Shown here piece after piece: positions 6,998 through 52,873 of a stretch of 64,000 nucleotides of DNA. The notes under the pieces are model-generated. The model saw nothing but the letters and a program-made list of their open reading frames with translations. It ran no database searches and was not told where the DNA came from. The stretch comes from an uncultured Pseudomonadales bacterium (GTDB taxonomy: Bacteria; Patescibacteriota; Microgenomatia; UBA1400; PJMF01), in contig CAZFRD010000003.1 of assembly GCA_964521215.1 (NCBI GenBank), positions 425-64,424 of the forward strand. The letters are read 5' to 3'. The number at the start of each line of letters is the position of its first letter. The first letter of the stretch is position 1. Position numbers and translations under genes: made by a program.

Positions 6998-7072
6998 AGG
7001 CGCGGGCGGGATTTGAACCCGCGAATCGAAGGTTTTGCAGACCTCGCCATTGGACCACTCTGGTACCGCGCC
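6998..7072 (-). tRNA. tRNA-Cys (GCA)
   Basis: Reverse complement reads GGCGCGG-TA-CCAG..TGGTCC..-GAGGT-CTGCAAA-ACCTT-..GCGGGTTCAAATCCCGC-CCGCGCC-T. Cloverleaf with a 7-bp acceptor stem, anticodon GCA and a U discriminator. Confidence 0.85.
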
Positions 7073-9294: not shown

Positions 9295-9371
9295 TGGTGA
9301 ACTTGAGAGGACTCGAACCTCTGACCTCCTCGATGTCAACGAGGCGCTCTAACCAACTGAGCTACAAGTTC
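9295..9371 (-). tRNA. tRNA-Val (GAC)
   Basis: Reverse complement reads GAACTTG-TAGCTCAGTTGGTTAGAGC-G-CCTCG-TTGACAT-CGAGG-AGGTC-AGAGG-TTCGAGT-CCTCT-CAAGTTC-A-CCA, with CCA encoded. Confidence 0.85.
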
Positions 9372-25431: not shown

Positions 25432-26217
25432 TCACAGACCCTTCAGTGGATCAACCCCAAAGATGTCCTCAGAGCCTCCGCCTGTAATTTCTCTTTGCTC
25501 GGGTAGGGGAATGGTCAAAAACTCAGCTAACTTAGCTAACACCACATTGTTTTCCTGACTTAGTTGAGGTAGGGGAGCGGTGAGCGCCTGCTGAACATTA
25601 GGATTATAGAAGAACGTTTTGGTCTCAAGATCCACTTGCAAAATTTCTGGTTCGTTGGGATTATCTGCAGTCGAGGCGACAGAATCGCCACCAGCAATTT
25701 CAAAAGCGGTAATAGTGGTGAACGGCGCCACTTTCTCCAGCAAATCCATAAATAAACTGACTTTCTCAAAGTCCCCCTTAATCGTAAATTCTAAGGGCAT
25801 ACTATCCGCTAGATTTTTTTTGTTGGAACTGATTTTGCCACTACCGGTAGCTAGTAAGCCGGGATTGGTTTTCAAGTCATACAACTCAACCTCGGAGGCA
25901 CGCTTCACTTGGTCCAAACTGGTGAGCACCTCAAGTAGGGGCTTGTTGTTGGGCAAAGTCAGTTGCACCAAATCGTTATTGGTAAAATATTCAACTTGAA
26001 TCAAATCCTCACTCAACTGCTTGGCTTTGGTCTTAAGTTTTTTCACTTCTTCGTTTTTCTTCGTGAGAGCCGATTTGGTTTCTAGAATATGTGTAATCTG
26101 CGGGTAAATAATCACTACCGACAACACAATTGAAGCTACAAAAATCAAAATTGAACCACTAAATAAGGTTCGGCGTTTGGCTTGATTAATTAGTAGATTA
26201 GCGTTTTGCACTGGCAT
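25432..26217 (-). CDS. type IV pilus assembly protein PilO-like
   Basis: Single N-terminal TM segment plus coiled coil. Last gene of the pilM-pilN-pilO-like operon. Confidence 0.5.
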   Translation of the reverse strand: MPVQNANLLINQAKRRTLFSGSILIFVASIVLSVVIIYPQITHILETKSALTKKNEEVKKLKTKAKQLSEDLIQVEYFTNNDLVQLTLPNNKPLLEVLTSLDQVKRASEVELYDLKTNPGLLATGSGKISSNKKNLADSMPLEFTIKGDFEKVSLFMDLLEKVAPFTTITAFEIAGGDSVASTADNPNEPEILQVDLETKTFFYNPNVQQALTAPLPQLSQENNVVLAKLAEFLTIPLPEQREITGGGSEDIFGVDPLKGL

Positions 26218-26220
26218 AAA

Positions 26221-26826
26221 TTATTCAAGCTCATCAATAATGGTATCTTGAGTTTTGGACTCGGGCGTAGGGGTGGGAGAAACAATTTGCAGGTTCACAC
26301 TAATACTCATATCGTAATTACCAGTTTCGGTGCGAGAAACATTTTCTTTCACAATATCTTTGTAGTCGGTGCGGAGTTGCGGGTCGTCTAGTTGAGCCAC
26401 CACTCTTTCCAGCACAAAAACGGAGGCGGTCTTCAAACGAAACTCTAGGTCATTACTATCCTCAGCGTAATTCAGACCGGTAATCGAGACGCCAGACTCG
26501 AATAGTGAACGAAATTTCTTTAGCGCTTGCTGTTTGGCTTGCCGGTTTTGAAACAACTCGGACAGCACATTCACTTTAGAAACGTAGCCCACGTAAGCCA
26601 GCTCTTGAGCTTTCAAAGACTCCAATTGCGCTAACACTTTTTTCTCTTCGTTCTTCACCACTGCCAAAGCCACATCAAAACTCAACCTTGCCAGCACGCT
26701 GGCGGTTGTTACAGCAACAGCAATAATACCCACGACGACAGCTTTTTTGAATAATGATCGATCCTGCGCCTGTTCTTTGGAACGTTGCTTGGTGAGATGG
26801 TAGGCAAAATTAATTGAAAATGGCAT
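26221..26826 (-). CDS. type IV pilus assembly protein PilN-like
   Basis: Short cytoplasmic N-terminus, one TM segment, periplasmic coiled coil. Immediately downstream of pilM. Confidence 0.55.
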   Translation of the reverse strand: MPFSINFAYHLTKQRSKEQAQDRSLFKKAVVVGIIAVAVTTASVLARLSFDVALAVVKNEEKKVLAQLESLKAQELAYVGYVSKVNVLSELFQNRQAKQQALKKFRSLFESGVSITGLNYAEDSNDLEFRLKTASVFVLERVVAQLDDPQLRTDYKDIVKENVSRTETGNYDMSISVNLQIVSPTPTPESKTQDTIIDELE

Positions 26827-26835
26827 GAGCTAAAA

Positions 26836-27840
26836 TTAATCTTCGCATTGCAGTAATCCCATCGCTACAGCAAAACTGGGAGGATTGGAAGCATTTTCTA
26901 CAGTTTTGGCGGCACCAAAGGGAGAGGAGACCAAAACCTCGGTGCCCAATTCGGCACTCACTAAGGCTGCAAAGTTGCGCAAAGATGCCACTCCACCAGA
27001 AAGGATAATGCGCTGAACAGATGCCCCCGTATGTTCATTAGCATAGTACTGCATGGCGATTCTCATTTCTCTCAACCATTCTCTGGCTTGGGGCAATAAG
27101 ATTTCCCGGACCTTGCCCTCAAACTGTGATTCATCCAAACCATAAGCCCGCACATACTGTTCTGTCTGACCTGCCTCCAAATTGAGAGTCGTTTGCAACA
27201 CTCTGGTAAGCAATAAACCGCCACCCATATGGGAAACCACAAAATTCAGACGCCCCGCAGTGACAACTTGCAAAATTAATTCGCTCGCTCCCAAGTGAGC
27301 GATTAAAGTCACGGGGTCCGATTCCGCGACACCAATATTGCGGTAAATAGAAACTGCCTGAGTTTCCACCAAGGTTGGTTCCACGCCAATATTTTGGAAT
27401 AAAGAAATATATCGCTCGACTACTTGCTTGCGCACACCCACCAAAAGTACCTGCATCGTCGTATCTTGTTTGTTCTGAGGTCGAGCGATGACTTGGTATT
27501 GCAACGACAGCTCTTCTTTGGGAATAGGAATATGTCGTTCGGCCTGCCATTGAATTGCCGAGGCCAGTTCCGAATCGGAGAGTGGGGGGATAGAAATAAC
27601 TTTGGTCGCCACCACCGATTCTGGCAAGGAAAGCCGCAGCTGAGCTTTGGGCAAGGCATAATCTTGCCAAAGGGTAGTCATCATCTGGCGCATTTGCTCC
27701 ACTTGCGCATCATCAGCGGGAGCTGCCAAACCCGTGGGATTGAGCACTTCAAAAGCCTTATCCACCTTGGCAGATTTACCAGGCTTACCAATCAAAACTT
27801 TGATACTGTATGATCCAAGATCAAGAGCGAGTGTGGGCAT
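26836..27840 (-). CDS. pilM: type IV pilus assembly protein PilM (actin-like ATPase)
   Basis: LALDLGSYSIKVLIG ASKHA-fold start. 334-aa protein. Confidence 0.8.
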   Translation of the reverse strand: MPTLALDLGSYSIKVLIGKPGKSAKVDKAFEVLNPTGLAAPADDAQVEQMRQMMTTLWQDYALPKAQLRLSLPESVVATKVISIPPLSDSELASAIQWQAERHIPIPKEELSLQYQVIARPQNKQDTTMQVLLVGVRKQVVERYISLFQNIGVEPTLVETQAVSIYRNIGVAESDPVTLIAHLGASELILQVVTAGRLNFVVSHMGGGLLLTRVLQTTLNLEAGQTEQYVRAYGLDESQFEGKVREILLPQAREWLREMRIAMQYYANEHTGASVQRIILSGGVASLRNFAALVSAELGTEVLVSSPFGAAKTVENASNPPSFAVAMGLLQCED

Positions 27841-27873: not shown

Positions 27874-28689
27874 CTATGGTTTAGTGATGGTCGTTCCACT
27901 ATATAAGGCATAATCCAAAAAGGGCGGGGGTTGTAGATCACTGGTAGTCACTTGGACGACTCGAGTTTCTTCGTCTTCACCCAAGGCGTTTTGAGCATTG
28001 GCGGTGATGGCATATTGTTGGCCGCTTGCTCCCTCAACATAAAGATTGGTTGAGTTATAGACTGGTATCACTCGGAGGAATAAATCGTCAGCGTCAACAT
28101 CATAGGTAAATTTGCTTTTTCTGCCATCGCTCCCAGCATCGAATGTAGGTTCAAAACCATCATTATGTGTCAATCCACAACCTTTGGCAGATTGGCCAAA
28201 ATATTCAACTTTGGTTTCACCATCATCATAATAGCGAGAGATCAATAAAGACGCTTCGGTATCACATGTCCCAGCCTCTTCCCCCCATTCAAGGACAACT
28301 GATCCACTTGTTGGTAAATTTACCTGGTAGGTTTCGCCTTCATCCAGTGGTTGAGTAAATTCAGTCGCCTGTGCCACTGATACTTGAACCGTCGAGTCAT
28401 TGAGGACACTACTCGATCCAGTAAGTGGCGCTGGGACACCAGCTCTTAATGCAGTGAGCACTTCGGTCAGCACTTGTTCGGCTCCAGACTGGGCAGCCGA
28501 AAAAACCTTGGTGGTTTCCGCCTGCTTGCTCGTCAGCGCTACATCTTCTGCCGTCCGTTGGGCCAAAGAGACTGCAATCACCATGGTTATACCCATGATC
28601 AACAAAACCATTAAGGCAATCTGTCCAGATTGTCGGTGTAAGTGATGAGACATGCGATCATAATACCGCATTAATTGGGTTGTCTGCAA
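27874..28689 (-). CDS. pseudopilin-like protein without Glu5 (ComGG/PilX-like), secreted
   Basis: Leader MQTT..HRQSG followed by QIALMVLLIMGITMVIAVSL, with no Glu at +5. Sits upstream of pilM in the same operon. Confidence 0.35.
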   Translation of the reverse strand: MQTTQLMRYYDRMSHHLHRQSGQIALMVLLIMGITMVIAVSLAQRTAEDVALTSKQAETTKVFSAAQSGAEQVLTEVLTALRAGVPAPLTGSSSVLNDSTVQVSVAQATEFTQPLDEGETYQVNLPTSGSVVLEWGEEAGTCDTEASLLISRYYDDGETKVEYFGQSAKGCGLTHNDGFEPTFDAGSDGRKSKFTYDVDADDLFLRVIPVYNSTNLYVEGASGQQYAITANAQNALGEDEETRVVQVTTSDLQPPPFLDYALYSGTTITKP

Positions 28690-28715
28690 GCTGTGATTTT
28701 GAAAGATTTTGAAGG

Positions 28716-29285
28716 TTAAGCAGTGTATTCTTCGTTTTCTTCCATTTCGCGCTCAATCAAACGCCTCAGGTAGACCGATCGAGGAATTTTCTTTTCCTTG
28801 GCTACCCAATCCAAATAGGTGCTGATGGTAGGCGTAATGAAGAAGTTGAAGCGTACATCACTGGTTTCTTGAGCGTATTCCAAGGCTAGAGTGAGCATTT
28901 CTTCCAGAGTAGAGTCGTCGTAGGTAAGCAGTTGGAGTCGATCAGAGTGCAAACCTTTAAGAGCGTGGGGGAGACCAGCGGCTTCTTTGCGGGTGAGGAT
29001 GATGACGGGTTTGCTCATGTTGAGGGCGGAGGCAACTTCAAAACCAATGCTGACGTCTGGCTGAGAGACTTCGTAGATGATGACGTCGGCTTTTTTGATC
29101 CAGTTGAAAAGTTTTTTGGCGTAGAGTTCGGCTTCAGCGGAGGATTCAGTAACGATCTCCGATGGGTTGCGCTCAATGGCGTGGCGGGTTAGTAAGTCGT
29201 GACCGAGCTTGTCGATAACGGAGATAACTCTCTCAAAGTCAGACTTATTTCCATTAATAATGGGTGCCATAAAATGTATTTTCAT
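28716..29285 (-). CDS. nucleoside 2-deoxyribosyltransferase-like domain fused to C-terminal ribbon-helix-helix (CopG/Arc-like) tail
   Basis: IIYEVSQPDVSIGFEVASALNMSKPVIIL resembles DPGTAFEIGYAxALGKPVI of the Nuc_deoxyrib_tr family. The C-terminal RFNFFITPTISTYLDWVAKEKKIPRSVYLRRLIEREME has a beta-alpha-alpha RHH pattern. Confidence 0.5.
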   Translation of the reverse strand: MKIHFMAPIINGNKSDFERVISVIDKLGHDLLTRHAIERNPSEIVTESSAEAELYAKKLFNWIKKADVIIYEVSQPDVSIGFEVASALNMSKPVIILTRKEAAGLPHALKGLHSDRLQLLTYDDSTLEEMLTLALEYAQETSDVRFNFFITPTISTYLDWVAKEKKIPRSVYLRRLIEREMEENEEYTA

Positions 29286-29357
29286 TTTTTCTCCTCCGTT
29301 TACAAATACCTATTATATACTTACACTGCAAGTTATTAAAAAATATATCAAATACGT

Positions 29358-30383
29358 ATGATTAATTTATCATTTGGTTTCATCGGCTGTGGGGGGTGGG
29401 CGAGGAAGAAATACCTGCCTTACCTGGAAAAACACCCAGAGGTGACGGTGGCGGCTTTTTGCGAGTTGGTGTTGCCCAAAGAAAAAACTGAAATTTCTGA
29501 ACTTTTCCCCGAAGCCAAATATTACGAAACCGCCACCGAAATGCTGGCCAGTGAAAAATTAGCTGGTGTCGTCGTCACGCTCCCACACAGCCTGCACTTA
29601 CCTAGAATCCTTCAGGCTTTAGAGCAAGGCTTACCAGTTTTTACCGACAAACCTGCCGGCGTCACCGCCGATGAAATCCGACAAATTGTCGCCGCCGAAG
29701 CAAAATCAGGCAAAAGAGTCACTATTGGCTCGCAGAGGCGAGCCTTACCAGGTTATACCGAAATTAAACAACGACTAGCCCAAAGTGGCGAACAACCACG
29801 CTGGGCCACCGGCACCTTTCACTTTAGCTCCTACCCCGGTTGGCAAAACACCTGGAGAAACAACCCCCAACTAGCCGGTAATCCGCAAACCAAGCAGGGA
29901 GTCTTGCTCGATACCGGCTACCACCTAATCGACAGCTTGCTCTATATCTTGAACTTCCCCAAACCACTCCGCGTCTTTGCGCAGGCCAATTACCGCGACT
30001 ACAACGTAGAAGCCGATGTAGCGCTCACCATCCAGTTTGACCACGAACTCACCATGCAACTAAATGTTTCGCGCGATGTGCCACCCCAATATGAAAAAGA
30101 GGGCATCGCGCTCTTAACCGACAGGCAGTACCTGTCATTCAACCTCAATTCCGTCAATGGCGTCAAAAAAGCCACTTTAGTGATTAGTGACCAAGACTCC
30201 TCAGCCCAAATCCTCCACTATCCCATCACCGCCATCGCCCATCATCCATTAGCTTCGTTCTTGGATTATGTAGCGGGTAAACCTTATGAAGAAACTTGGT
30301 CTGTCGCCTCTAGTTTGCTGACGCTAGAAATTATTGATGCCGCTTACCAATCAATTCAAACTCAAGCTGTAGTTCACTTATAA
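29358..30383 (+). CDS. Gfo/Idh/MocA family NAD(P)-dependent oxidoreductase
   Basis: N-terminal Rossmann motif FGFIGCGGWARKKYLP in a 341-aa protein. Confidence 0.75.
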   Translation: MINLSFGFIGCGGWARKKYLPYLEKHPEVTVAAFCELVLPKEKTEISELFPEAKYYETATEMLASEKLAGVVVTLPHSLHLPRILQALEQGLPVFTDKPAGVTADEIRQIVAAEAKSGKRVTIGSQRRALPGYTEIKQRLAQSGEQPRWATGTFHFSSYPGWQNTWRNNPQLAGNPQTKQGVLLDTGYHLIDSLLYILNFPKPLRVFAQANYRDYNVEADVALTIQFDHELTMQLNVSRDVPPQYEKEGIALLTDRQYLSFNLNSVNGVKKATLVISDQDSSAQILHYPITAIAHHPLASFLDYVAGKPYEETWSVASSLLTLEIIDAAYQSIQTQAVVHL

Positions 30384-30401: not shown

Positions 30402-31154
30402 ATGCCAAATTTAAACTCGGTCGCCGTAATTACAGGTGGAAGTAGTGGGATGGGACTCGCCACTGCCAGAAAATTAGCCCAAGAAGGTTGCCAGACGCTA
30501 TTTTTACTAGCAAGAACTGAGAACAAGTTGGACCAAGTAGTTTCTGAGCTAAAACATGATTTTCCCGCACTCAGAGTGAGCGGACTCACAGTAGACGTAA
30601 GCAACTTTGAGCAAGTCAAAGCCACTTTTGCCACCATTGCCCAAACGGAATCGCGGATTGATTATCTTTTGCTGGCTGCTGGTGCGAGTGTGAGCGAGAA
30701 ACTGAGCAAATCAACCGATTCCCAAGCTTTTAACCAAGATTTACAAATTAACTTAGTCGGCACCTACAATTGCCTATTGTGTGCCCAACCCTTGTTGGGG
30801 CAGGGGAGCAGTGTGGTGACGGTGGCCTCGATCCGGGGCCAGCTGCCTAGTCCGACTGGCTTGGGGTATGCCGCCGCCAAAGGCGGCATCCTAGCCTTAA
30901 CCAGATCCACAGCGCTCCAGCTGGCCCCCCAAGGAATTCGTGTCAATTGCATCTCTCCTAGCGCCGTTTTTCCCACCGGAATGTCCCAACACTGGGACGA
31001 AAGCAAGCGCCAACGGATTACTAACGAAATTCCGCTTCAAAGGATTACTAGCCCCGAAGAAATTGCCAATGTGGCTTGGTTTTTACTTTCCCATCAATCA
31101 AGTTGTCTCACTGGTCAAACTATCAACTGTAACGGTGGTGAATACATGAACTAG
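30402..31154 (+). CDS. short-chain dehydrogenase/reductase (SDR, FabG-like)
   Basis: TGGSSGMG cofactor-binding motif and catalytic YAAAK. Confidence 0.85.
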   Translation: MPNLNSVAVITGGSSGMGLATARKLAQEGCQTLFLLARTENKLDQVVSELKHDFPALRVSGLTVDVSNFEQVKATFATIAQTESRIDYLLLAAGASVSEKLSKSTDSQAFNQDLQINLVGTYNCLLCAQPLLGQGSSVVTVASIRGQLPSPTGLGYAAAKGGILALTRSTALQLAPQGIRVNCISPSAVFPTGMSQHWDESKRQRITNEIPLQRITSPEEIANVAWFLLSHQSSCLTGQTINCNGGEYMN

Positions 31155-31787: not shown

Positions 31788-33125
31788 ATGCTAAAGCTAA
31801 ATGAATTTCGAGAAAAAATTGGAACATGGTACTCTCAGTTGTCAAATAAGGAAAAGGCGAGTTTAGGTGTTTTTGTTGGTAGTTTTCTTTTACTATTGAC
31901 CACATCTTGCGCTGAACCTTTACCAATGTCAGGAGTGGCAGCAGCAGCTGACCTAGGTAACAATGACAAGAGAAACCAACCCACAGCTCAAGTTGACAAT
32001 TCCGACGTCGTTGTTGCAGACAATCTTGATGAAGCGACAGCAAATCTCCAACAAGTAGCAACACCAACCCCAACGCAGACACCAAGATCTACTCAAGAGC
32101 AGCCACAACCAACCGAAACACAAGTTCCATATGCCGTTGTGAAAAAAAATAGCAACCTGCGAAGTGACCACACAATAACATCTGCGATTGTTGCTGGGTT
32201 GACCAGCGGAGAGAATGTAGTTGTAATCGGTAAAATAGACTATCCAACTGGGACTTTCGATTGGTACGAAATCCAACGAACGATTGGTAAAAGAGAAAGA
32301 GGTTTTATTCGAGGTGATTTACTTGGTGTTAGCCCAACTATGACAGTTCCCGTGCTAGAAACGCTTTCTGCACCAACCCCAGCTCCTAAACCTCCTACCA
32401 TTAGAGAAAGTCAAACGACGAAAGAAGTTTCTGTAACATACATTACACCTGCCGTGAACACCATCACTTTCTCCAACCCCTACACCCAAGAAGGGAGAGC
32501 ACCAGGCCTTGTCATAACAAACCCTCAGAGATTTAAAGTGTTAACAGACAATCATCCATGGTACGAAATAGTATTCGGAGGAAATCGAGTGTGGATACTA
32601 GCTACTCAAGATACTGTAATAGTAAAAGGAACTGAAAAAGTTGTGGTTCAAGCAAGTGGCCCAGTTGTAACTAACCCAGAAACCGCACCCACATCAACTG
32701 GCACCCATTTTAGTGGAATTCATACCGGAGGTGTCTGGTACATTCCTGAGGTGGAACTCAATCTATCAGATGGAGAACACAATAAAAGAGTCGTGTGGAG
32801 CCCTGAAACAGCAACTATTACTCCAGTTACAGGATGGGTTGCTGAAGCTAGCGAAGTAACGGTATACCAAAAAGAGGGAAACTTAATATTTAATGTGGGC
32901 TCAGTGGATCAAAATGCCGATGGTTCTTATTCGGTGTTGGGTAATAGATTAAACTCATCATATGTAGTTTATATCTATATTAAAGATGACGCTGGCAATG
33001 ACACGGCAACAAATACCAATCTTCAGTATTCTCCAACAATGGTATCAGTTGATGAGCGAGTGGGAGTATTAGGAAATTGTATATTACTATTTGTCTCTAG
33101 AGATAAGTTGCCTAAGATAAAATAA
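31788..33125 (+). CDS. secreted protein with SH3b-like repeats
   Basis: Signal/anchor peptide. Two segments with the bacterial SH3 pattern (VVKKNSNLRSDHT..GENVVVIGKID...WYEIQ and a second at VLTDNHPWYEIVFGG). Confidence 0.45.
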   Translation: MLKLNEFREKIGTWYSQLSNKEKASLGVFVGSFLLLLTTSCAEPLPMSGVAAAADLGNNDKRNQPTAQVDNSDVVVADNLDEATANLQQVATPTPTQTPRSTQEQPQPTETQVPYAVVKKNSNLRSDHTITSAIVAGLTSGENVVVIGKIDYPTGTFDWYEIQRTIGKRERGFIRGDLLGVSPTMTVPVLETLSAPTPAPKPPTIRESQTTKEVSVTYITPAVNTITFSNPYTQEGRAPGLVITNPQRFKVLTDNHPWYEIVFGGNRVWILATQDTVIVKGTEKVVVQASGPVVTNPETAPTSTGTHFSGIHTGGVWYIPEVELNLSDGEHNKRVVWSPETATITPVTGWVAEASEVTVYQKEGNLIFNVGSVDQNADGSYSVLGNRLNSSYVVYIYIKDDAGNDTATNTNLQYSPTMVSVDERVGVLGNCILLFVSRDKLPKIK

Positions 33126-33168
33126 TTACCTCTTGATCATGAGTGCTATTTCTTGATAGAGTGGTATC

Positions 33169-36100
33169 GTGTGGAAATATTTTTGGAAATTATTTGTTAT
33201 TGCATCATTATTTTTTGTTCTCGTAGTTTTTAAACCTCTAAATACCGCTGAAGCTTACTGTAATCCAGACCTCTGGCATGATGCAACAAGTTGTCAGTCT
33301 AGTTGCACAAAAACACAATACAACGACTGCGACGTAACCAATACTAGAGTAGTATCATGTACTGGGGGTAGTTGTGCAGATCCGACTGCTACGCCAGGTG
33401 GTAATCCCAATGTTCGCTGTGGCAGTTGTACCTGCCCAGATGGAAGTACTAAAGCAAAGTGGTGTACCCCCGATTGCTCTGCCACTAACGCCTGTTGGTG
33501 TGATCCATGTGGAGGAGGTGGCGGGGGAGGGGGGAATAGTTGCTGTATGTTAGATGAGAATTGTACTGCTAGTAACTCATGTTACAACTGTAGTCCTGGT
33601 AACTGTAGAGGTTTTTGTGACTCCAATAATGAATGTTCGGCAGCGAGCTACGAAGGCGCCTGTACATATCGTTGTATAGCGGATCCCACCTCACCTCCTG
33701 GTTCCACACCCACTCCAACCTTTCCACCGCTTTGTGGCAACCTCAGCGTCGACCCTGGCGAGGCGTGTGATAATTACATTTACAATAGCAATACAGTCCC
33801 TAATGCCTGTCGGCTGAACTGCCAGTGGCCAGTCTGTGGCGATTTTGTAGTAGATAATACAAACGCCACTCACGGGGGGGTCAACGAAGAATGCGATGCC
33901 GGCGCTGGCAACAGCACCACTGGTTACTGTTCCAACAGTTGTTTACAACTACCCGAATATTCAAATTCTTGTAATCTGATAACTATTGGGCCTTATGCTT
34001 ATGATGGCGTGGACTTTACCTACTCGTACCGAGCGCAAAGTAACGCCAATACTCCAGGTAGTTACTCACCATCGCTACAAATGACTCACCTCAGAAACAA
34101 ATTAGGGATAGATCTTACCCCGCCCAATATTATGTATAGCGAAATAATTCCAAGTTGTAGTAATTACTCATGCACTTCCAACCAAACAATGACCATCGAT
34201 GGTGATTACTTGGTAGTGGATGGAGTAGGTCATAGTTTAACAGTAGGTGTCAATGTCTGGTCAACTATTGAGGGTGAGGCACACCAGTGCGAAACAAGCT
34301 GGTATAGCTCCACCTCGCCAGCATGGCCCAACGAAAACTCACTTAATGGCTGTGATAACAACTGCCGAACTACCATACCAATTATTAATAAGGTAGAGGC
34401 TGCCTGTAACAACTTCACTGTTGACGCTAGTACGATCAATGCAAGTAGTAACTTAACCATCACAGGAACAACTACGACTAATTTATCAGTGGGTCAAGTG
34501 GTACTACAGTACCAAATTCTTAAGGAAGATAACTCCACCACCACTTGGGAAGCCGTTCCAGGAGCAGCTTGCACCGCTACTGGCTCAGATTGGACATGTA
34601 CCAATGTTATTCTTCCTGAATTATTAGAAACTGACCAAGAAGTGAGATTTGATTTGATTCCACTAGTTACAGTTGCCTGTTCGAATATTACGCATCATAG
34701 CGATCAAAGTACGACCGACTGCCTAGTAGCGGCTGGTCCAACTACCGCAGTAAGATGTCGATCTTGGGGCTGGGCCGCTGGCTTGCCTCCCAACGACCAT
34801 CCCAACACTTCTTGTAGCAGTAGTTGTTATGTGGCTTTACCCGTCGGTGCTGTGCCTTATACCCCCACACCCACCCCCACAGTTACACTCACCCCCATTC
34901 CAACCAATACTGCCACACCAACGCCCATTGGAGCGCCCACCGCCACGCCCACCCACACACCCACACCCACACCTACGCCCACTTCTTCCGTACCAACGGC
35001 CACACCCACCAATACTCCTGCCGTGGCACCAGCATTCTGGGGTGAATTATTTTACGACTTCAACAACAATGGAGTTTATGAAACTCAATGTGACGTGGGC
35101 CATATCGTCGAAAAAATTGATTATGCCACCTTTGGCTGTACCGGAGCAGGTTGTACCGACTGCTCGCCCAAAGCTGCACTCGCTGCCCTAATTGGACCAC
35201 TCAACCGGTCACTAGAAGGATTTGAATTATTGGTGGAGGGCACCGGTTTCATTTGGCTCCCCAATCCCAAAATCAGACTCGCACCCTACAGTAGTAATCC
35301 GTTTTACTCGTGGAACGTGGCGCAAAATAATTCTTATACCCTGACTTTGACAGATCCTCGTTCCACCGTCCGTAACTGTAGCGTCACTACTGGTAATCCT
35401 CGCAATATCTCGGTGGGCACTTCCAATGTGGGCAATATTAACACCGGTATCATCTGTAGCCCTCCTTCCACACCCACACCAACGCCCACTCCCACAGCCA
35501 CCGTTACACCCACACCCACCGTCACACCCACTTCCACGCCCACACCCACGCCCACGCCTGGTCCCTATTGGCAAATCCAAGGTGGCAATCTCTTTTCTAA
35601 TGGCGATACTACTGTATTATTGCCAGATCTCTCGTCACTCGGCACCTCAATTCATTTAGCCGATAAATATCCAAATTCTGCTCTCAATATTAGCGCTGGT
35701 GCGGCCATTAGCAATGGATTACTATCAATCGGTTCTGGTTCACTTAATGATTTTTCGGCAAATTTTTCGGGTGAAAAAGTTGAAGAAACTAGCAGCTCGA
35801 TCTGTAGTGATTACACTTTTGCCAGTTTTGCGGATAGTTTAGATTTAGCTCATTTAACATCACAAGGGCCTTTATCAGGAACTATGATTGTCCAAGATTT
35901 CGACAATATATATGGTTCAGCTGTCGATCGGGGAGATTACAAAATTTTCTATCGCTCAGATGATCTACGCCTCAATATCGGAGTATTGTGGGAAGTTAAT
36001 GCAGATCCACCAAACAACAACAAACCCACCATCGTAGTGGTTGATGGAGATCTTGAAGTTGCCTCCATCGGAGGTTTGGAACAACTCATTGACCTAAATC

Positions 36101-36471
36101 CAAATACATTTCTTGGCTTTATTGTCTCTGGCGATATCATTTTTGAAAGCTCAGTGGGCAACAACGTTAGTTCTTCAACTATACCTCCAGGAATTCCAGA
36201 CAACGAACTAAGCAATGTAGAGGGCTTATTCTTCTCGACCGGAAAACCAACCGGTGGCGGTAATGTTATCGTCCAATCAGCCACTCTACCCGCAGAGGAT
36301 AAACGCTTCGTGGGTGAGGGCACATTCATTGGCTGTGCTGGTGTAGAGTTACAGCGAGCCCTTCAAATCAATAATAATAAAACTGAGATATTCCGTTTCA
36401 AACCAGACTTACTATTGAACGTACCAACCGACTTAAGAGAGGCACATATATCATGGCAAGAAATCAACTAG
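33169..36471 (+). CDS. 1100-aa cysteine-rich secreted protein with Myxococcus-type Cys-rich repeats, poly-Gly and PT linkers (candidate pilus-associated adhesin)
   Basis: Signal peptide. Two repeats of the form CGxxxVDPGEACD / CGDFVVD...EECDAGAGNS..YCSNSC. A GGGGGGGGNSCC tract. PTPTPT linkers at ~34858-35025 and ~35465-35565. The stop overlaps the start of the pilin gene at 36453. Confidence 0.7.
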   Translation: MWKYFWKLFVIASLFFVLVVFKPLNTAEAYCNPDLWHDATSCQSSCTKTQYNDCDVTNTRVVSCTGGSCADPTATPGGNPNVRCGSCTCPDGSTKAKWCTPDCSATNACWCDPCGGGGGGGGNSCCMLDENCTASNSCYNCSPGNCRGFCDSNNECSAASYEGACTYRCIADPTSPPGSTPTPTFPPLCGNLSVDPGEACDNYIYNSNTVPNACRLNCQWPVCGDFVVDNTNATHGGVNEECDAGAGNSTTGYCSNSCLQLPEYSNSCNLITIGPYAYDGVDFTYSYRAQSNANTPGSYSPSLQMTHLRNKLGIDLTPPNIMYSEIIPSCSNYSCTSNQTMTIDGDYLVVDGVGHSLTVGVNVWSTIEGEAHQCETSWYSSTSPAWPNENSLNGCDNNCRTTIPIINKVEAACNNFTVDASTINASSNLTITGTTTTNLSVGQVVLQYQILKEDNSTTTWEAVPGAACTATGSDWTCTNVILPELLETDQEVRFDLIPLVTVACSNITHHSDQSTTDCLVAAGPTTAVRCRSWGWAAGLPPNDHPNTSCSSSCYVALPVGAVPYTPTPTPTVTLTPIPTNTATPTPIGAPTATPTHTPTPTPTPTSSVPTATPTNTPAVAPAFWGELFYDFNNNGVYETQCDVGHIVEKIDYATFGCTGAGCTDCSPKAALAALIGPLNRSLEGFELLVEGTGFIWLPNPKIRLAPYSSNPFYSWNVAQNNSYTLTLTDPRSTVRNCSVTTGNPRNISVGTSNVGNINTGIICSPPSTPTPTPTPTATVTPTPTVTPTSTPTPTPTPGPYWQIQGGNLFSNGDTTVLLPDLSSLGTSIHLADKYPNSALNISAGAAISNGLLSIGSGSLNDFSANFSGEKVEETSSSICSDYTFASFADSLDLAHLTSQGPLSGTMIVQDFDNIYGSAVDRGDYKIFYRSDDLRLNIGVLWEVNADPPNNNKPTIVVVDGDLEVASIGGLEQLIDLNPNTFLGFIVSGDIIFESSVGNNVSSSTIPPGIPDNELSNVEGLFFSTGKPTGGGNVIVQSATLPAEDKRFVGEGTFIGCAGVELQRALQINNNKTEIFRFKPDLLLNVPTDLREAHISWQEIN

Positions 36472-36965
36472 GCTATTCTTTAGTCGAACTATTGGTGGTG
36501 ACGGCTCTAATGTTACTCTTGCTTTTGGGTGTGTCCACTTTGCTCATCGCCAGTTTGACCAGCGATGCCCGTATCACCATAAGGCAAGAACTGCGAGCAG
36601 AGGGCAACTACGCCCTAGATACCATGAGTTACTTCATCCGCAATGCCAAATCTCTTGAGGACTGTACTTCTGGGGGCATCACTCTCACCGTCAACAACGA
36701 AGATAGACGAGAGAGCCAGTTCTCAGTGGTACTCAATGGGGGCTATAATCAAATCGCCTCGGATTCTGCAGCGGTAGGCTCCTTTCTTGCACGAAGAGCA
36801 TTTCTCACCCAAGCTCCTTACGAAGTGAGCAACTTTATCGTGGACTGCAATGACGACAACGCCCAGCCCTACGTCACCATTAGTTTCACTTTGGAGCGAA
36901 CTGACGTGGAAGGAGAAGCGATCAGCAATGACTTCCGCCACACCGTATTGGTGCGCAATCAATAA
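36453..36965 (+). CDS. prepilin-type minor pilin/pseudopilin
   Basis: MARNQLG|YSLVELLVV class III signal with Glu5. Confidence 0.65.
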   Translation: MARNQLGYSLVELLVVTALMLLLLLGVSTLLIASLTSDARITIRQELRAEGNYALDTMSYFIRNAKSLEDCTSGGITLTVNNEDRRESQFSVVLNGGYNQIASDSAAVGSFLARRAFLTQAPYEVSNFIVDCNDDNAQPYVTISFTLERTDVEGEAISNDFRHTVLVRNQ

Positions 36966-36970
36966 TTGAA

Positions 36971-37432
36971 TTAATATTCCCGTTCGTAATATTCTTGGGT
37001 CAGAACATAAGTTTTTGTTTTGGCATCAACTTCCCACTCAATGGTAATTTTTGCGGTGATTTTTTCTGGAGATCCAGCTGGTGGCTTCGTAATCAATACC
37101 GTAGGAGTAAAATCCATACCCAGCTTATTGATCGTCGCACATGACGAACCTGGCAGTGGTTCAGTAAAAGTAGGAGGATCCGCTGGAAAATAACAATAGT
37201 TGGTAAGATCGTTCAGCCCAGCAAAAAAAGTTGGCCAACTTTCTTGAGCCCGTTTGAGCAAAATATATTCCGAAATTTCCTCAGCCAAACTTGTTGCGCC
37301 TTCTCGGTAGCGGTTGACAGCTTCTCGCTGGATGGAGTAGGTGAGACTGATAGCGATCCCCGTCAACATCACGCCCACTATTACGGTGGCAACCAGGAGC
37401 TCAATTAAGGTATTGCCTCGTTGTTTTTTCAT
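36971..37432 (-). CDS. prepilin-type minor pilin
   Basis: MKKQRG|NTLIELLVATVIVGV. Confidence 0.65.
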   Translation of the reverse strand: MKKQRGNTLIELLVATVIVGVMLTGIAISLTYSIQREAVNRYREGATSLAEEISEYILLKRAQESWPTFFAGLNDLTNYCYFPADPPTFTEPLPGSSCATINKLGMDFTPTVLITKPPAGSPEKITAKITIEWEVDAKTKTYVLTQEYYEREY

Positions 37433-37434
37433 AA

Positions 37435-37989
37435 TTAAGGTTGTTTCGTCACGGCCGAGATCTCGCCGCCCGGGCTAAGAGTAAATTGATAAGTCACGCC
37501 ACCACGACTGACCTCAATATCGGTATCATCATCCACAGTGGCTCCGCCCATGAGCGAGTAGAAGCTGACGGATTTAGATACACTGCCCCACACTCCACCA
37601 ACAACAATTTGCTCACCATCATAAAACACATCTACCGGTACAGTAATTTCATAGGTACTAACAGGAGTTGGTGAATTTGTAGCCGAAAACTTACCCGAGC
37701 CACAGTATCCCACACTTTGAACTTCATCGTCTGAAGAATTAAAAACTAGGGAATAGCCGATTACTTTATCTGGAACTGTACACCCCTCAGCATCCTGAGA
37801 TCTAGCTTTGGCTCTGGTTTGTACAACAAAACGCTGTAATTCGGTCGCCACTTTTTCTGCATCCAATCTTTCTTGGAAACGCAGATAGGTTGCTCCACCA
37901 ACGGTCAGTAAAATCAGACCCACCACCATCGTCGCCATTAGCTCAATCAGGGTGAAACCTTGATGGTTATGAAGCGTGGGTTGTTTCAT
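37435..37989 (-). CDS. prepilin-type minor pilin (FimT/GspH-like size)
   Basis: ..HQG|FTLIELMATMVVGLILL. Confidence 0.7.
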   Translation of the reverse strand: MKQPTLHNHQGFTLIELMATMVVGLILLTVGGATYLRFQERLDAEKVATELQRFVVQTRAKARSQDAEGCTVPDKVIGYSLVFNSSDDEVQSVGYCGSGKFSATNSPTPVSTYEITVPVDVFYDGEQIVVGGVWGSVSKSVSFYSLMGGATVDDDTDIEVSRGGVTYQFTLSPGGEISAVTKQP

Positions 37990-37999
37990 GAAAAATCAA

Positions 38000-38395
38000 T
38001 TAGGGGTTAGTCACGATAAAAGGCGGAGCGTTTTCTAAGGTTGCTTCCAGTTGAAAACCAGTACAGCTAGTACTGCAACCCCCAGGTGAAGGGGTATATG
38101 TATAAGCGGCACCAGTTGACGGGTCGGTAGGAATTGCTGCATCAGACCAATAACCGGTCGTCGACAGTAAGTCGGTATTTTCTGGGTAAACTCCATTATC
38201 TGATCTGTATAGCACCAGCGCCTGTCTGATATTGGTTACATCAGTTCTCCGACGGCTGTTGCGGGCATTTCTAGCGGCATTGGTATAGGTCACCAAACCA
38301 ATAGCAAATAAGATTGACATAATGGTGACCACGGCTAACAGCTCGATTAGGGTAAAACCTGATCTTTTTTTATTTTTTCGGTTAAGTTTTATCAT
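38000..38395 (-). CDS. type IV pilin
   Basis: ..KKRSG|FTLIELLAVVTIMSIL. Confidence 0.75.
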   Translation of the reverse strand: MIKLNRKNKKRSGFTLIELLAVVTIMSILFAIGLVTYTNAARNARNSRRRTDVTNIRQALVLYRSDNGVYPENTDLLSTTGYWSDAAIPTDPSTGAAYTYTPSPGGCSTSCTGFQLEATLENAPPFIVTNP

Positions 38396-38416
38396 TTTGT
38401 TATTTTTTTTAGATTT

Positions 38417-38827
38417 TTAAAATAAGTTGTTCACACAAAAGAAACCACTTCCCCCCATTCCTGGAACACCACCGCACGCAGCATCACAATTTCCATTGTC
38501 ACCCTCAAGGTCTGCGCTAATACAGTAACTCGTTCCACCAAACTGACAAACATAATCATCTCCGCGTGGACCTTCATAAACTCCGTTGAAACCTTGAACA
38601 TAGTCATCCAAATTTGCACAGTCATTTGTAACTGGGTAAGCATTTGGTAACTGATCTGCATAGTACTGCTCAGCTGCACCTTGTAATGCTTTAATCTCCG
38701 AAATCCTCCGAGCATCTCGGCTTCTCTGAAGTGATTTTTGAAAAGCCATCAAACCCATCGTAGATAAAAGCCCAATGATGGCGACCACAATGAGGATTTC
38801 TATCAGGGTAAAGCCGTTTTTTTTCAT
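38417..38827 (-). CDS. type IV pilin (PilA-like)
   Basis: MKKNG|FTLIEILIVVAIIGLL with a C-terminal Cys pair. TTGCAA-18-TATGAT promoter-like element upstream. Confidence 0.8.
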   Translation of the reverse strand: MKKNGFTLIEILIVVAIIGLLSTMGLMAFQKSLQRSRDARRISEIKALQGAAEQYYADQLPNAYPVTNDCANLDDYVQGFNGVYEGPRGDDYVCQFGGTSYCISADLEGDNGNCDAACGGVPGMGGSGFFCVNNLF

Positions 38828-38888
38828 AGTCTGATCATCATACTAGTATTTGCGACCCAATTGCAAGCGCCGATCAAAGTAGTTGAGT

Positions 38889-39848
38889 TTAAGGACGGAT
38901 TATCACCTGGATTTGGGTGGCAGCAGTTGAGGCCGATTGCGTGCCATAAGCATCAACTACCATCAATTTGGCCAAGTAACTACATTCTGCCTGGGCACAC
39001 GGGTATTGATGAGTCGCCGCCGTATCTGTCGCCAAGCCCGTCCAACTGGTTCCGTCACCAAAATCAAGCGTCGCCGTAGACAATTTCGGCAACAGCGAAT
39101 CAATCACAAAATTAAAAATCACATCATTAATAGTATTGGCTTGGAGCACCCGCTGGTAACGATCAAAACCTGGTTCACCATTAAACGAGAGAATAATCGG
39201 CCGTGGCTGACAACTCGCATAGCAATCTTGACTACAATCAGTGCCCGGTCTCTGCTCACCCACCCCCAAGGATTGAACCGGATCACAGCAACTGAAACCG
39301 TAACCAGCGCAGTTGGTCTCGGGACTAGTAGTCGCCACCGGTTTTTCGAGTGTTGTTACCAGCACTCTATCTTCCAGCATTATCACTCGGGACCGCAACA
39401 GCAGTGGCGCCAAAACCGGCCAATGTTTAGCCACCTCTCTCACCTCGTTAGGCACTGCCTGGAGACTGATCATCCAAGCTCCTTCTTGAGCGAAAACTAA
39501 ACCAGATTGCCCTGGTTTTTTGGTGGCAAAAAGCGGTAGTTTTCGTCGTGTAATGGTTTTGGGTACAAATTCGTACTGGTTGCAAACAATTTCCAACACA
39601 TATTCGGTATCAGAAGTGAATCTGAGTTGAGGGACAAAGAGAGGAGAGTCATTGGTTTTTTGTGCCTCCAAATCCTGGCAATATTGATAATATTCACTCA
39701 GGTCCTTGGTACGCTGTAACAAGGAAACATCGCTCACAACTTGGTTATATGCACGAACCAGCACCCACTGCTGAAAGGCCAAAAAGGAGCCAGCGATAAC
39801 GACCAAGAAAATGAGGGTAAACACAACCACGTAGCGGAAAAAGCGCAT
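38889..39848 (-). CDS. membrane-anchored Cys-rich protein in pilus locus (hypothetical pilus biogenesis factor)
   Basis: N-terminal TM segment. Eight Cys clustered in the C-terminal third. Sits between pilD and the pilin genes. Confidence 0.4.
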   Translation of the reverse strand: MRFFRYVVVFTLIFLVVIAGSFLAFQQWVLVRAYNQVVSDVSLLQRTKDLSEYYQYCQDLEAQKTNDSPLFVPQLRFTSDTEYVLEIVCNQYEFVPKTITRRKLPLFATKKPGQSGLVFAQEGAWMISLQAVPNEVREVAKHWPVLAPLLLRSRVIMLEDRVLVTTLEKPVATTSPETNCAGYGFSCCDPVQSLGVGEQRPGTDCSQDCYASCQPRPIILSFNGEPGFDRYQRVLQANTINDVIFNFVIDSLLPKLSTATLDFGDGTSWTGLATDTAATHQYPCAQAECSYLAKLMVVDAYGTQSASTAATQIQVIIRP

Positions 39849-39860
39849 AGGCTCAGCTTA

Positions 39861-40685
39861 CTACACTCCCAGGAGCTGAGTCCAGTACCAAGCCCAAATT
39901 TGGTCACCCCAAAATAATGCCAAAGCACTGCCAAGCAGGAGAAATGGTCCAAAGGGAATGGGTTGTTTGAGTTTGTGTTTGCCCAACATCAAGAGAAGAC
40001 TGCCCACCAAGGCGCCAGAGCAGACCGCGATCATCAAAGCTACCAATACCTGTGGCCAACCGACTAACATGGCTAAGACTGGCGCCAGTTTCACATCGCC
40101 TAACCCCATGCCTTTTTCTTTGGTGATCCAACGCAAAAACCAAAAAAATGCTCCGACACCAATAGCGGCAACTAGCATGGCTAAGAAATCGATCTGCTGC
40201 ATAATGCCTGAGCCCACGAGGACAATGCGGTACAACAAAGTGGCCACAGCCATGATTACGACTGCCCAGTCGGGAATAATAAAATATTTCATATCTGCCA
40301 CAAAGATAACCAGACTGAGAGTGCCAATTAGTAACCAAAACAAGGGCTGGAGTAGGGTAAATGGCTGGTCGACCAGTAGGAAGAAGAAACTCCCAGCCCA
40401 ATACCACCAAACAAAGAGGGCGCCCACCATTACTTCCATCGCTACATGCGAAATCGCAATTTTTTTATGGCATTTGCGACATTTCCCCCTCAGCATCAAG
40501 TAAGAGAGTAGGGGAATGTTGTCATACCATTTGATGATGTAGGAACAGTGGTCACAACGAGAACGACCAGTTTTCCAGTCTTCTTTTTCTTCCACCGTGC
40601 GATAAACCAGCACGTGCAAAAAACTCCCAATACAGACACCAAGAGCAAAAATGATCAAGCTAACGACTATTTGAAAGATTAACAC
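39861..40685 (-). CDS. pilD: prepilin peptidase (A24 family)
   Basis: N-terminal Zn-binding CDHCSY..CRKCHKK. Multi-TM with catalytic Asp-containing loops. Confidence 0.85.
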   Translation of the reverse strand: MLIFQIVVSLIIFALGVCIGSFLHVLVYRTVEEKEDWKTGRSRCDHCSYIIKWYDNIPLLSYLMLRGKCRKCHKKIAISHVAMEVMVGALFVWWYWAGSFFFLLVDQPFTLLQPLFWLLIGTLSLVIFVADMKYFIIPDWAVVIMAVATLLYRIVLVGSGIMQQIDFLAMLVAAIGVGAFFWFLRWITKEKGMGLGDVKLAPVLAMLVGWPQVLVALMIAVCSGALVGSLLLMLGKHKLKQPIPFGPFLLLGSALALFWGDQIWAWYWTQLLGV

Positions 40686-52796: not shown

Positions 52797-52873
52797 TGGT
52801 GGACCGAAGGGGGCTCGAACCCCTGACCTCCTGCATGCCATGCAGGCGCTCTAGCCAACTGAGCTACCGGCCC
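52797..52873 (-). tRNA. tRNA-Ala (GGC)
   Basis: Reverse complement reads GGGCCGG-TAGCTCAGTTGGCTAGAGC-G-CCTGC-ATGGCAT-GCAGG-AGGTC-AGGGG-TTCGAGC-CCCCT-TCGGTCC-A-CCA. The G3:U70 wobble is the Ala identity pair. Confidence 0.85.

Follow-up and report, generated by a model that had tools for sequence, protein, structure and literature searches.

A DNPH1-like domain joined to a probable ribbon-helix-helix domain in a paralogous protein family of Microgenomatia: candidate nucleotide-sensing regulators

Introduction

Fusions of enzyme-derived sensor domains with DNA-binding domains are known, among them NikR, PutA, NrtR and the PurR of B. subtilis. Here we analyze a gene (FAM, for the family to which it belongs) encoded on the minus strand at positions 28716..29285 of a 64,000-nt stretch of contig CAZFRD010000003.1 (assembly GCA_964521215.1; GTDB lineage Patescibacteriota, Microgenomatia), the whole of which is referred to below as the window. 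Its product joins an N-terminal domain of the DNPH1/Rcl type with a probable C-terminal ribbon-helix-helix (RHH) domain. Both domains, and the principle of combining an enzyme-derived sensor with a DNA-binding module, are already known. A search of the literature found no description of this particular fusion, of its restriction to Microgenomatia, of arrays of its paralogues or of their co-variation with partner enzymes, and in scans with Pfam, NCBIfam and PADLOC no curated family model passed its cut-off on the family protein. We interpret the protein as a nucleoside- or nucleotide-sensing RHH regulator of the one-component type, one of a Microgenomatia-specific paralogous family, and consider that this interpretation has about an even chance of being right.

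Two bodies of published work are relevant for this interpretation. In DNPH1, catalysis involves Glu104 as the nucleophile, plus Tyr24 and Asp80, and the contacts to the 5'-phosphate, which is needed for binding, come from backbone NH groups (Ile29, Arg30, Gly31, Gly100), from the Ser98 side chain and from Ser128 of the second subunit (PMC10483697). Bacteria of the Candidate Phyla Radiation (CPR; Patescibacteria) have small genomes with few recognisable regulators, and they need scavenged nucleotides (PMC6744442, PMC7143001).

Results

Domain architecture and fold assignment

The gene and the two domains of its product were delineated as follows:

28716..29285, minus strand: family gene, DNPH1-like domain plus C-terminal RHH, 189 aa (open reading frame with ATG start)
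28866..29285, minus strand: N-terminal DNPH1/Rcl-like domain (Nuc_deoxyrib_tr superfamily), residues 1-140 (Pfam, phmmer, AlphaFold2 (AF2), Foldseek, alignment)
28719..28859, minus strand: C-terminal RHH-like domain, residues 143-189 (profile, AF2, Foldseek)

The fold of the N-terminal domain is clearly that of the DNPH1/Rcl branch (2'-deoxynucleoside 5'-phosphate N-hydrolase) of the nucleoside 2-deoxyribosyltransferase (NDT) superfamily. The Pfam model PF05014 (Nuc_deoxyrib_tr) matches it at E=7.4e-6 with a score of 26.5 bits, just short of the 28.8 bits set for gathering, and a precomputed match to the same model is present on many homologues. A phmmer search of the PDB returned rat and human DNPH1/Rcl (1.3e-12 to 1e-9, residues 4-136), rat Rcl being the best match (1.3e-12, residues 4-133). 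The AF2 model, built from 38 homologues (pLDDT 86.8), aligned by Foldseek with DNPH1 structures at E=6.9e-9 and a TM(target) of 0.75-0.86. The hallmark motif D..G.E..A...KPVI is present in the form of D67, G81, E83, A87 and K92-P93-V94-I95. An earlier note on this DNA had recognized a Nuc_deoxyrib_tr-like N-terminus by this hallmark and proposed a profile search and structure prediction as a check; the Pfam, phmmer and Foldseek matches and the motif residues bear the assignment out, and the domain lands on DNPH1/Rcl within the NDT superfamily.

The C-terminal domain is a probable RHH, as judged from convergent, individually weak matches. Its layout is RHH-like, with a strand of alternating polar and hydrophobic pattern (R145-F-N-F-F-I150), a helix (152-164), a turn (IPRS), a second helix (169-183) and the tail NEEY. 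AF2 models an extended segment and two helices, all ordered (pLDDT >90 for the C-domain folded alone), the strand being unpaired in the monomer model, as expected. Of 20 family C-termini, 12 are matched by Pfam RHH_3, at best with 2.9e-4; for the window copy the value is 0.0085, short of the gathering score. The NCBIfam models of the RelB (0.036) and VapB (0.14) antitoxin RHH match residues 152-187. The top Foldseek matches of the isolated C-domain were ParD RHH antitoxins (TM 0.64, rmsd 2.0-2.3 Å, E ~4 for this small domain), and a C-domain profile search against PDB sequences found nothing relevant. The reading of the last ~45 aa as a strand and two helices of the RHH type, proposed in the earlier note, is thus supported, and the disorder that it had named as counting against this reading is not seen, AF2 modelling two ordered helices.

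The C-domain is the better conserved part of the protein, with a mean pairwise identity among 134 copies of 55.5% vs 31.6% for the N-domain. Its motif is D-[VT]-R-F-N-F-F-[IV]-S-P-x-I-x-x-Y-L-D-W-x-x-K-x-K-K-I-P-R-S-V-Y-L-R-x-L-I, in which R145, F146, N147 and R174 are each found in at least 94% of the copies, F148 and F149 in about 80%, and the less conserved basic residues K163 and R169 in 90 and 112 of the 134, respectively. The Arg and Asn sit at alternate positions of the strand, and several Lys and Arg residues surround the N-terminus of helix 2. Arg and Asn so placed are typical base-reading residues of RHH proteins.

Beyond the RHH, a conserved tail N-x-E-[YF] (28719-28736, residues 184-189) carries Tyr or Phe in 109 of the 134 copies. 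In NDT enzymes the C-terminal Tyr of a neighbouring subunit enters the active site, and by analogy a cross-subunit active-site role of the family tail is conceivable.

Conservation of the active site

To compare the pocket with that of DNPH1, 134 family copies were aligned to rat Rcl (human numbering equals rat numbering plus 11), with the following correspondences:

Glu104 (rat E93), nucleophile: E83 in the window copy; Glu in 83/134 of the family, the rest mostly L, I or V
Tyr24: H4 in the window copy; Y in 75, F in 28 and H in 23 of the 134
Asp80: L59 in the window copy; hydrophobic or small in all 134, never Asp
Ser98: D77 in the window copy; Ser in 111/134
Ser128 of the other subunit: P106 in the window copy; Pro in 114/134
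Arg30: I10 in the window copy; Arg in 48/134

The framework residues D67, E72, G81, K92-P93 and Y122 are invariant or nearly so across the family, D67, E72, G81 and K92-P93 being pocket-forming motifs, and the domain accordingly is a pocket derived from DNPH1. The phosphate loop reads G-S-I-R-G-G in DNPH1 vs A-P-I-I-N-G in the window copy, and S8, R10, G11 and S77 are retained by most other subfamilies. The earlier question of whether the catalytic Glu is conserved thus has a divided answer: it is kept in the window copy as E83, and is missing in 38% of family members. As the sequences align, the known DNPH1 mechanism cannot operate in more than a third of the family, and the window copy is unlikely to be a canonical DNPH1 or NDT enzyme. 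Since 38% of the members are without the nucleophile and the Asp80 equivalent is absent in all of them, catalysis does not appear to be the common function of the family. Residual or altered catalysis is possible in the window copy, because E83 is kept and the pocket is rich in His and Asp (H4, H35, D67, E72, D77, E83, H107). With the phosphate-binding Ser lost and Asp77 gained, the ligand may be non-phosphorylated or cationic.

Distribution of the family

Among 5.8 billion clustered proteins, 207 matches were found. Nearly all those listed are 185-205 aa long with full query coverage; all but one are unnamed or "hypothetical", the remaining one being a JGI entry labelled 2'-deoxynucleoside 5'-phosphate N-hydrolase, and their sources, where named, are Microgenomates, Pacebacteria and Patescibacteria. 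When one genome per species was scanned, 186 relatives turned up, from which 80 loci were kept, in metagenome-assembled genomes (MAGs) of the Woese-, Shapiro-, Collier-, Chisholm- and Pacebacteria types. A profile of the C-domain, run against 1.84 billion representatives, matched 342 proteins, nearly all of 185-200 aa with the domain at the C-terminus; the shorter matches look like fragments. From this search it follows that this RHH variant exists only in the present architecture. The family comprises ~340 clusters at 50% identity and is specific to Microgenomatia-type CPR bacteria, in which it is multi-copy and paralogous. The same architecture, which the earlier note had suggested looking for in other genomes, is thus found there, confined to this group.

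The titles of many loci are at odds with this distribution. Many are evidently wrongly titled "Pseudomonadales" and two bear archaeal titles; L025, L056 and many of the loci L010-L089 are titled Bathyarchaeia, Methanoperedens, Methylococcaceae, Treponemataceae or uncultured Pseudomonadales. These contigs show typical Microgenomatia synteny (RecR, radical SAM enzyme, FAM and CysS, or pilMNO, S16 and RNase III), and they are probably products of binning contamination or mislabelled MAGs.

Genomic context and partner enzymes

Genomic context was analyzed in 85 non-redundant loci with 142 family copies, the copy number ranging from 1 to 6 per ~12 kb. Three positions recur. In 27 loci and in the window, the family genes stand directly upstream of pilX-like-pilM-pilN-pilO, which KH-S16-RNase III follows on the opposite strand; in ~30 loci they lie between DnaX-YbaB-RecR and CysS; and in the remaining loci they have ribosomal protein L10 or sugar genes of the rmlC type as neighbours. 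Immediately upstream of a family copy there is almost always a further copy or a variable partner, most often -4 to +40 nt away.

The partners are enzymes of many kinds. They include at least seven unrelated clusters of class I S-adenosylmethionine (SAM) methyltransferases, two kinds of radical SAM enzyme, a thymidine kinase (TK; PF00265), a PfkB kinase, a dCMP/cytidine deaminase, NUDIX proteins (beside family copies in L006 and L069) and two clusters without an assigned family, c42 and c46, for which no Pfam, NCBIfam or PDB match was found; as a tentative guess, they may be nucleoside-phosphorylase-like and PRTase-like. Their common denominator appears to be nucleoside or nucleotide chemistry, and that of the family proteins an enzyme-derived pocket with a conserved RHH. 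Partner and family gene are also found in divergent orientation (radical SAM 8, c42 4, deaminase 3, methyltransferase cluster MT68 2, GFO 2), a layout characteristic of regulator-target pairs, not of toxin-antitoxin pairs.

In a neighbour-joining tree the subfamilies follow the type of partner. In 68 out of 106 cases a copy shares its partner type with its nearest relative in another locus, vs 7.5 expected (maximum 21 in 2000 permutations); this co-variation is inflated by shared ancestry, and still 35 of 64 cases match when the nearest neighbour is <60% identical.

One radical SAM partner (cluster c7; L051:4970-5929 and 22 other loci) matches the PADLOC model pVip nearly over its full length (1.6e-23). 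That it is a viperin was not confirmed: with the NCBIfam viperin model, which has its cut-off at 180 bits, it scores 60, and SkfB, BlsE and MoaA are what it matches best in the PDB. A nucleotide is possibly its substrate. One methyltransferase partner matches PADLOC mad2; for most partners, as for the family protein itself, the same scan gave no match.

Arrays of five or six paralogues on both strands (L006:2724-7570, on the same contig as L021; L083:3211-7109; L004:4656-7817) are interleaved with NUDIX and methyltransferase genes and lie near an inosine-uridine nucleoside hydrolase. Split or truncated copies (L004 4656-5270, L008 5487-6053) are suggestive of turnover. In L003:1-2868, a family pair adjoins genes of the thymidylate cycle (ThyA of 350 aa, DHFR and SHMT) and a GIY-YIG gene, a further link with nucleotide metabolism.

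The window locus and the search for operators

Upstream of the family gene in the window we noted the following features:

29291-29297, minus strand: Shine-Dalgarno sequence GGAGGAG of the family gene (read off the sequence)
29312..29339, minus strand: promoter-like TTAATA-16-TATAAT of the family gene, 10/12 (consensus match only)
29303..29369, no strand: two copies of CAAATAC(C/G)TAT.AT.., 46 bp apart and flanking the divergent promoters (candidate operator)
29358-30383, plus strand: divergent GFO/IDH/MocA oxidoreductase
30402-31154, plus strand: SDR, following the oxidoreductase

The promoter-like site lies inside a 72-bp divergent intergenic region (29286-29357) that the family gene shares with the GFO/IDH/MocA gene. 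The oxidoreductase and the SDR fill the slot in which the partner enzyme stands in most relatives, and L010 has the same layout. The two copies of the candidate operator are 76% identical and AT-rich (n=2) and could have arisen by chance; they are not conserved in L010 or L011.

Two other searches for a shared site yielded candidates that were rejected. When 7-10-mers in 99 upstream regions of family operons were compared with those in 363 intergenic regions from elsewhere, the sole enrichment was that of the extended -10 (TGATATAAT). Among gapped palindromes and direct repeats in 84 target regions vs 310 promoter-bearing control regions, the top candidate was AAAAT-NN-ATTTT (7 vs 0), an artefact, since it arises from the codons for MKI[YH]F, the conserved start of the protein. 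Footprinting of the intergenic regions between radical SAM and family genes, and of the window vs L010 and L011, found no conserved block beyond promoter elements.

Elsewhere in the 64-kb window, three tRNA genes (6998-7072, 9298-9371, 52800-52873 (-)) are the sole Rfam matches at gathering score.

Relation to the pilus operon

Downstream of the family gene lies a type IV pilus operon:

28695..28713, no strand: perfect tandem direct repeat, TTCAAAATC x2 in minus-strand reading, just upstream of the pil -35
28689-28684 and 28665-28660, minus strand: pil operon promoter, -35 TTGCAG, 18-nt spacer, -10 TATTAT
27874..28653, minus strand: PilX_N-like minor-pilin/assembly protein (probable ATG at 28653, not TTG at 28689)
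26836..27840, minus strand: PilM (Pfam PilM_2, 4e-36)
26221-26826, minus strand: PilN-like protein
25432-26217, minus strand: PilO-like protein (PilO 0.009; PilN-PilO synteny conserved in 24-27 loci)

The start of the pilX-like gene, for the L004 homologue of which a weak PilX_N match is on record, was judged from the N-termini of homologues. TTG 28689, the mechanical start of the open reading frame, falls on the -35 hexamer of the conserved pil promoter, and the "MRYY" of the longer frame is the translated -10 region, which is conserved in L011 and L080 for that reason. The true gap between the family gene and pilX is therefore 62 bp (28654-28715) with the pil promoter inside it, and in most other loci it measures 64-385 bp, also with a conserved promoter. 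With 6 nt between the -10 and ATG 28653, the pil mRNA may be leaderless. The earlier note was right to place the family gene next to the pil operon; its 26-bp gap had been measured to TTG 28689, and its description of the gene as standing at the head of the pilM operon does not hold, the family gene not being the first cistron of an operon that has a promoter of its own.

This promoter is, by its sequence, an ordinary strong promoter of the sigma-70 type. The pattern C-rich-TTGCA-N17/18-TAtTAT occurs in 17 of 23 pilX upstream regions vs 10 of 389 other genes; as an RHH site the C-rich TTGCA element was rejected, the same pattern being found at L10, NusB and pilin genes. As for the tandem repeat, L011 and L080, the nearest relatives, do not preserve the first copy of TTCAAAATC and have in common with the window only the proximal AAAAyCACArC. 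No terminator-like site was found between the family gene and the pil operon, and read-through is possible.

At least five subfamilies are represented among the family copies next to pilX: the c42/GFO type (including the window), the deaminase type, the MT95/MT55 type, the MT36/MT68 type and the Glu-less array types. Their N-domains share a mean identity of 33.5% (minimum 17%) vs the family-wide mean of 31.6%. Because these copies are polyphyletic, the pil-proximal position is a site for different cassettes, not the seat of one orthologous regulator; the neighbourhood of pilX-pilMNO is a hotspot for such cassettes. With the operon having a promoter of its own, loci between RecR and CysS being similarly common and no shared operator having been found, the regulatory link to pilMNO hinted at in the earlier note has no support as a specific one.

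On its other side the family locus is also flanked by pilus genes, lying between pilX-M-N-O and a group of pseudopilins (N_methyl) with a prepilin peptidase (window 33000-40000; L001:1-4137). What stands between the two type IV pilus gene groups differs (GFO, SDR and three uncharacterised genes in the window; c42 and a second family copy in L001), so that the segment is a variable islet.

Discussion

In our preferred interpretation, the DNPH1/Rcl-derived alpha/beta domain, with its active site partly dismantled, would bind a nucleoside- or nucleotide-like small molecule, while the C-terminal RHH would dimerise and bind DNA. Each subfamily would be genetically tied to one kind of nucleoside- or nucleotide-handling or -modifying enzyme, and ligand occupancy would control repression or de-repression of its own promoter and that of the neighbouring partner. 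In the window the target would be the 72 bp between the family gene and the divergent GFO/IDH/MocA-SDR genes. The window copy may still have some N-glycosidase activity (E83), which the model does not need. We infer DNA binding, ligand binding and regulation alike; a one-component regulator is the most economical model, since catalysis is dispensable in many members and divergent arrangements occur. The idea of a ligand-responsive RHH factor or an autoregulated nucleotide enzyme, put forward in the earlier note, fits these data, and the constant pairing with nucleoside and nucleotide enzymes strengthens it.

Several observations weigh against this interpretation. All RHH matches fall below curated thresholds, and hhalign of the family against single NikR and CopG sequences was not significant. 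No common operator was found in the 84-99 upstream regions or by footprinting. The context of the window copy is atypical in that a co-directional partner enzyme is absent. Finally, a near-invariant DNA-reading strand among the paralogues of one genome is unexpected if each of them controls its own operon; such an invariant reading head predicts cross-talk or a common target, and would also allow a role of the tail other than DNA binding. A more far-reaching version would have all paralogues of this CPR-specific expansion share one DNA-reading head (R-x-N), sense different (deoxy)nucleoside or nucleotide species, each tied to its partner enzyme, and converge on common operators, so that nucleotide status would control the salvage cassettes and possibly also the pil and RecR loci (DNA-scavenging pilus and recombination); we offer this as a speculation with a small chance of being correct.

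Among the competing explanations, a moonlighting enzyme-repressor similar to PutA, in which the N-glycosidase would clear unwanted or modified nucleotides derived from the partner or from imported DNA and the RHH would be autoregulatory, seems to us unlikely. It would account for the retention of E83, D67, E72 and G81 in the window copy, for the phosphate loop Y-F-x-[AG]-S-x-R-G and S77 kept by most other subfamilies and for partners that are nucleotide enzymes, and scavenged DNA is believed to serve CPR bacteria as a source of nucleotides (PMC6744442, PMC7143001). On the other hand, the Asp80 equivalent is hydrophobic in 134 out of 134 copies and the nucleophile is lost in 38%. In the window copy, moreover, His stands in place of Tyr24, Asp of Ser98, Pro of Ser128 and Ile of Arg30; substrate binding by DNPH1 depends on the 5'-phosphate contacts (PMC10483697). 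A dedicated regulator of pilX-pilMNO, coupling, for example, a DNA-uptake pilus to nucleotide status, is distinctly less probable. The family gene stands directly upstream of pilX and co-oriented with it in 21 of the 85 loci and in the window, with a tandem repeat just upstream of the pil -35 and no terminator-like site between the genes, and an invariant reading head would suit a target common to all paralogues. Against it speak the identity of the pil-adjacent copies of at least five subfamilies, which is no higher than the family background, and about as many loci between RecR and CysS, or beside rmlC, that are without pil genes. The promoter is of an ordinary strong kind that L10, NusB and a pilin gene also have, L011 and L080 do not preserve the repeat, and the KH-S16-RNase III synteny beside pilO shows that adjacency need not be functional here.

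The remaining two alternatives take the RHH domain in other directions. In a conflict or toxin-antitoxin-like cassette, the partner would make a toxic or antiviral nucleotide derivative, and the family protein would combine immunity or antitoxin function with RHH autorepression. The two-gene units, the many paralogues clustered at hotspots between core genes, the resemblance of the RHH to ParD, RelB and VapB antitoxin domains and the PADLOC matches of partners (pVip for the radical SAM enzyme, 1.6e-23, and mad2 for the methyltransferase) would be in line with it; we nevertheless hold it to be very improbable, as PADLOC has no match for the family protein or for most of the partners, the radical SAM enzyme is a generic one, the TK, PfkB kinase and dCMP deaminase resemble housekeeping salvage enzymes, divergent layouts are atypical for toxin-antitoxin systems and the window copy is without such a partner. 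Least probable of all, in our view, is a pure enzyme or binding protein, the RHH-like tail of which would only oligomerise or complete a neighbouring active site, without binding DNA. NDT and DNPH1 active sites do use residues of the adjacent subunit (PMC10483697), N-x-E-[YF] is conserved and no operator was found, whereas the conserved surface Arg, Asn and Lys occupy the exact DNA-contact positions of an RHH and the profile matches go to DNA-binding RHH families.

With respect to the earlier note, the fusion is real, the link to the pilus is one of position, and the domain that resembles an enzyme is no canonical DNPH1. As a nucleotide-sensing regulator, the family would be a concrete candidate for how CPR bacteria sense and manage their nucleotide supply, and it provides a handle on uncharacterised methyltransferase and radical SAM partners, which probably act on nucleosides or nucleotides. 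Sensors converging on common operators, if real, would form a lineage-specific nucleotide-economy network in organisms unable to make nucleotides.

Comparison with known systems

With DNPH1/Rcl the family protein shares the fold, sequence similarity over residues 4-136, the nucleophile Glu and the AD...E...G.E...KP framework. In contrast to DNPH1 it is without equivalents of Tyr24, Asp80, Ser98 and Ser128 of the other subunit, its Pfam score is below gathering, and it has the C-terminal RHH that both DNPH1 and the NDTs are without. NikR (an N-terminal RHH with a C-terminal ligand-binding domain) and PutA (an RHH with an enzyme) are similar as metabolite-controlled RHH fusions, and NikR also has the helix-turn pattern ...RS....R.LI... 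in an in-register but non-significant alignment. The family RHH, however, is C-terminal, the sensor fold is different, and no homology was detected beyond the RHH pattern.

Among antitoxins, HicB likewise combines an N-terminal globular domain with an RHH at the C-terminus, its gene lying downstream of that of the partner, and the ParD RHH is the best structural match of the family C-domain. Unlike the partners of HicB, ParD, RelB and VapB, those of the family are metabolic-type enzymes of 160-380 aa and many folds, and divergent layouts occur; no toxin-like open reading frame adjoins the family genes, the neighbours of which are enzymes or pil genes.

NrtR, the B. subtilis PurR and PyrR, which regulate nucleotide metabolism, are built on the same logic. 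The sensor is a Nudix or PRTase domain there vs a DNPH1-like domain here, and the DNA- or RNA-binding part also has another fold, so that the likeness is one of analogy only: in each case adjacent genes of nucleotide metabolism are controlled, or in our family would be controlled, by a catalytically degraded enzyme domain that responds to a nucleotide metabolite.

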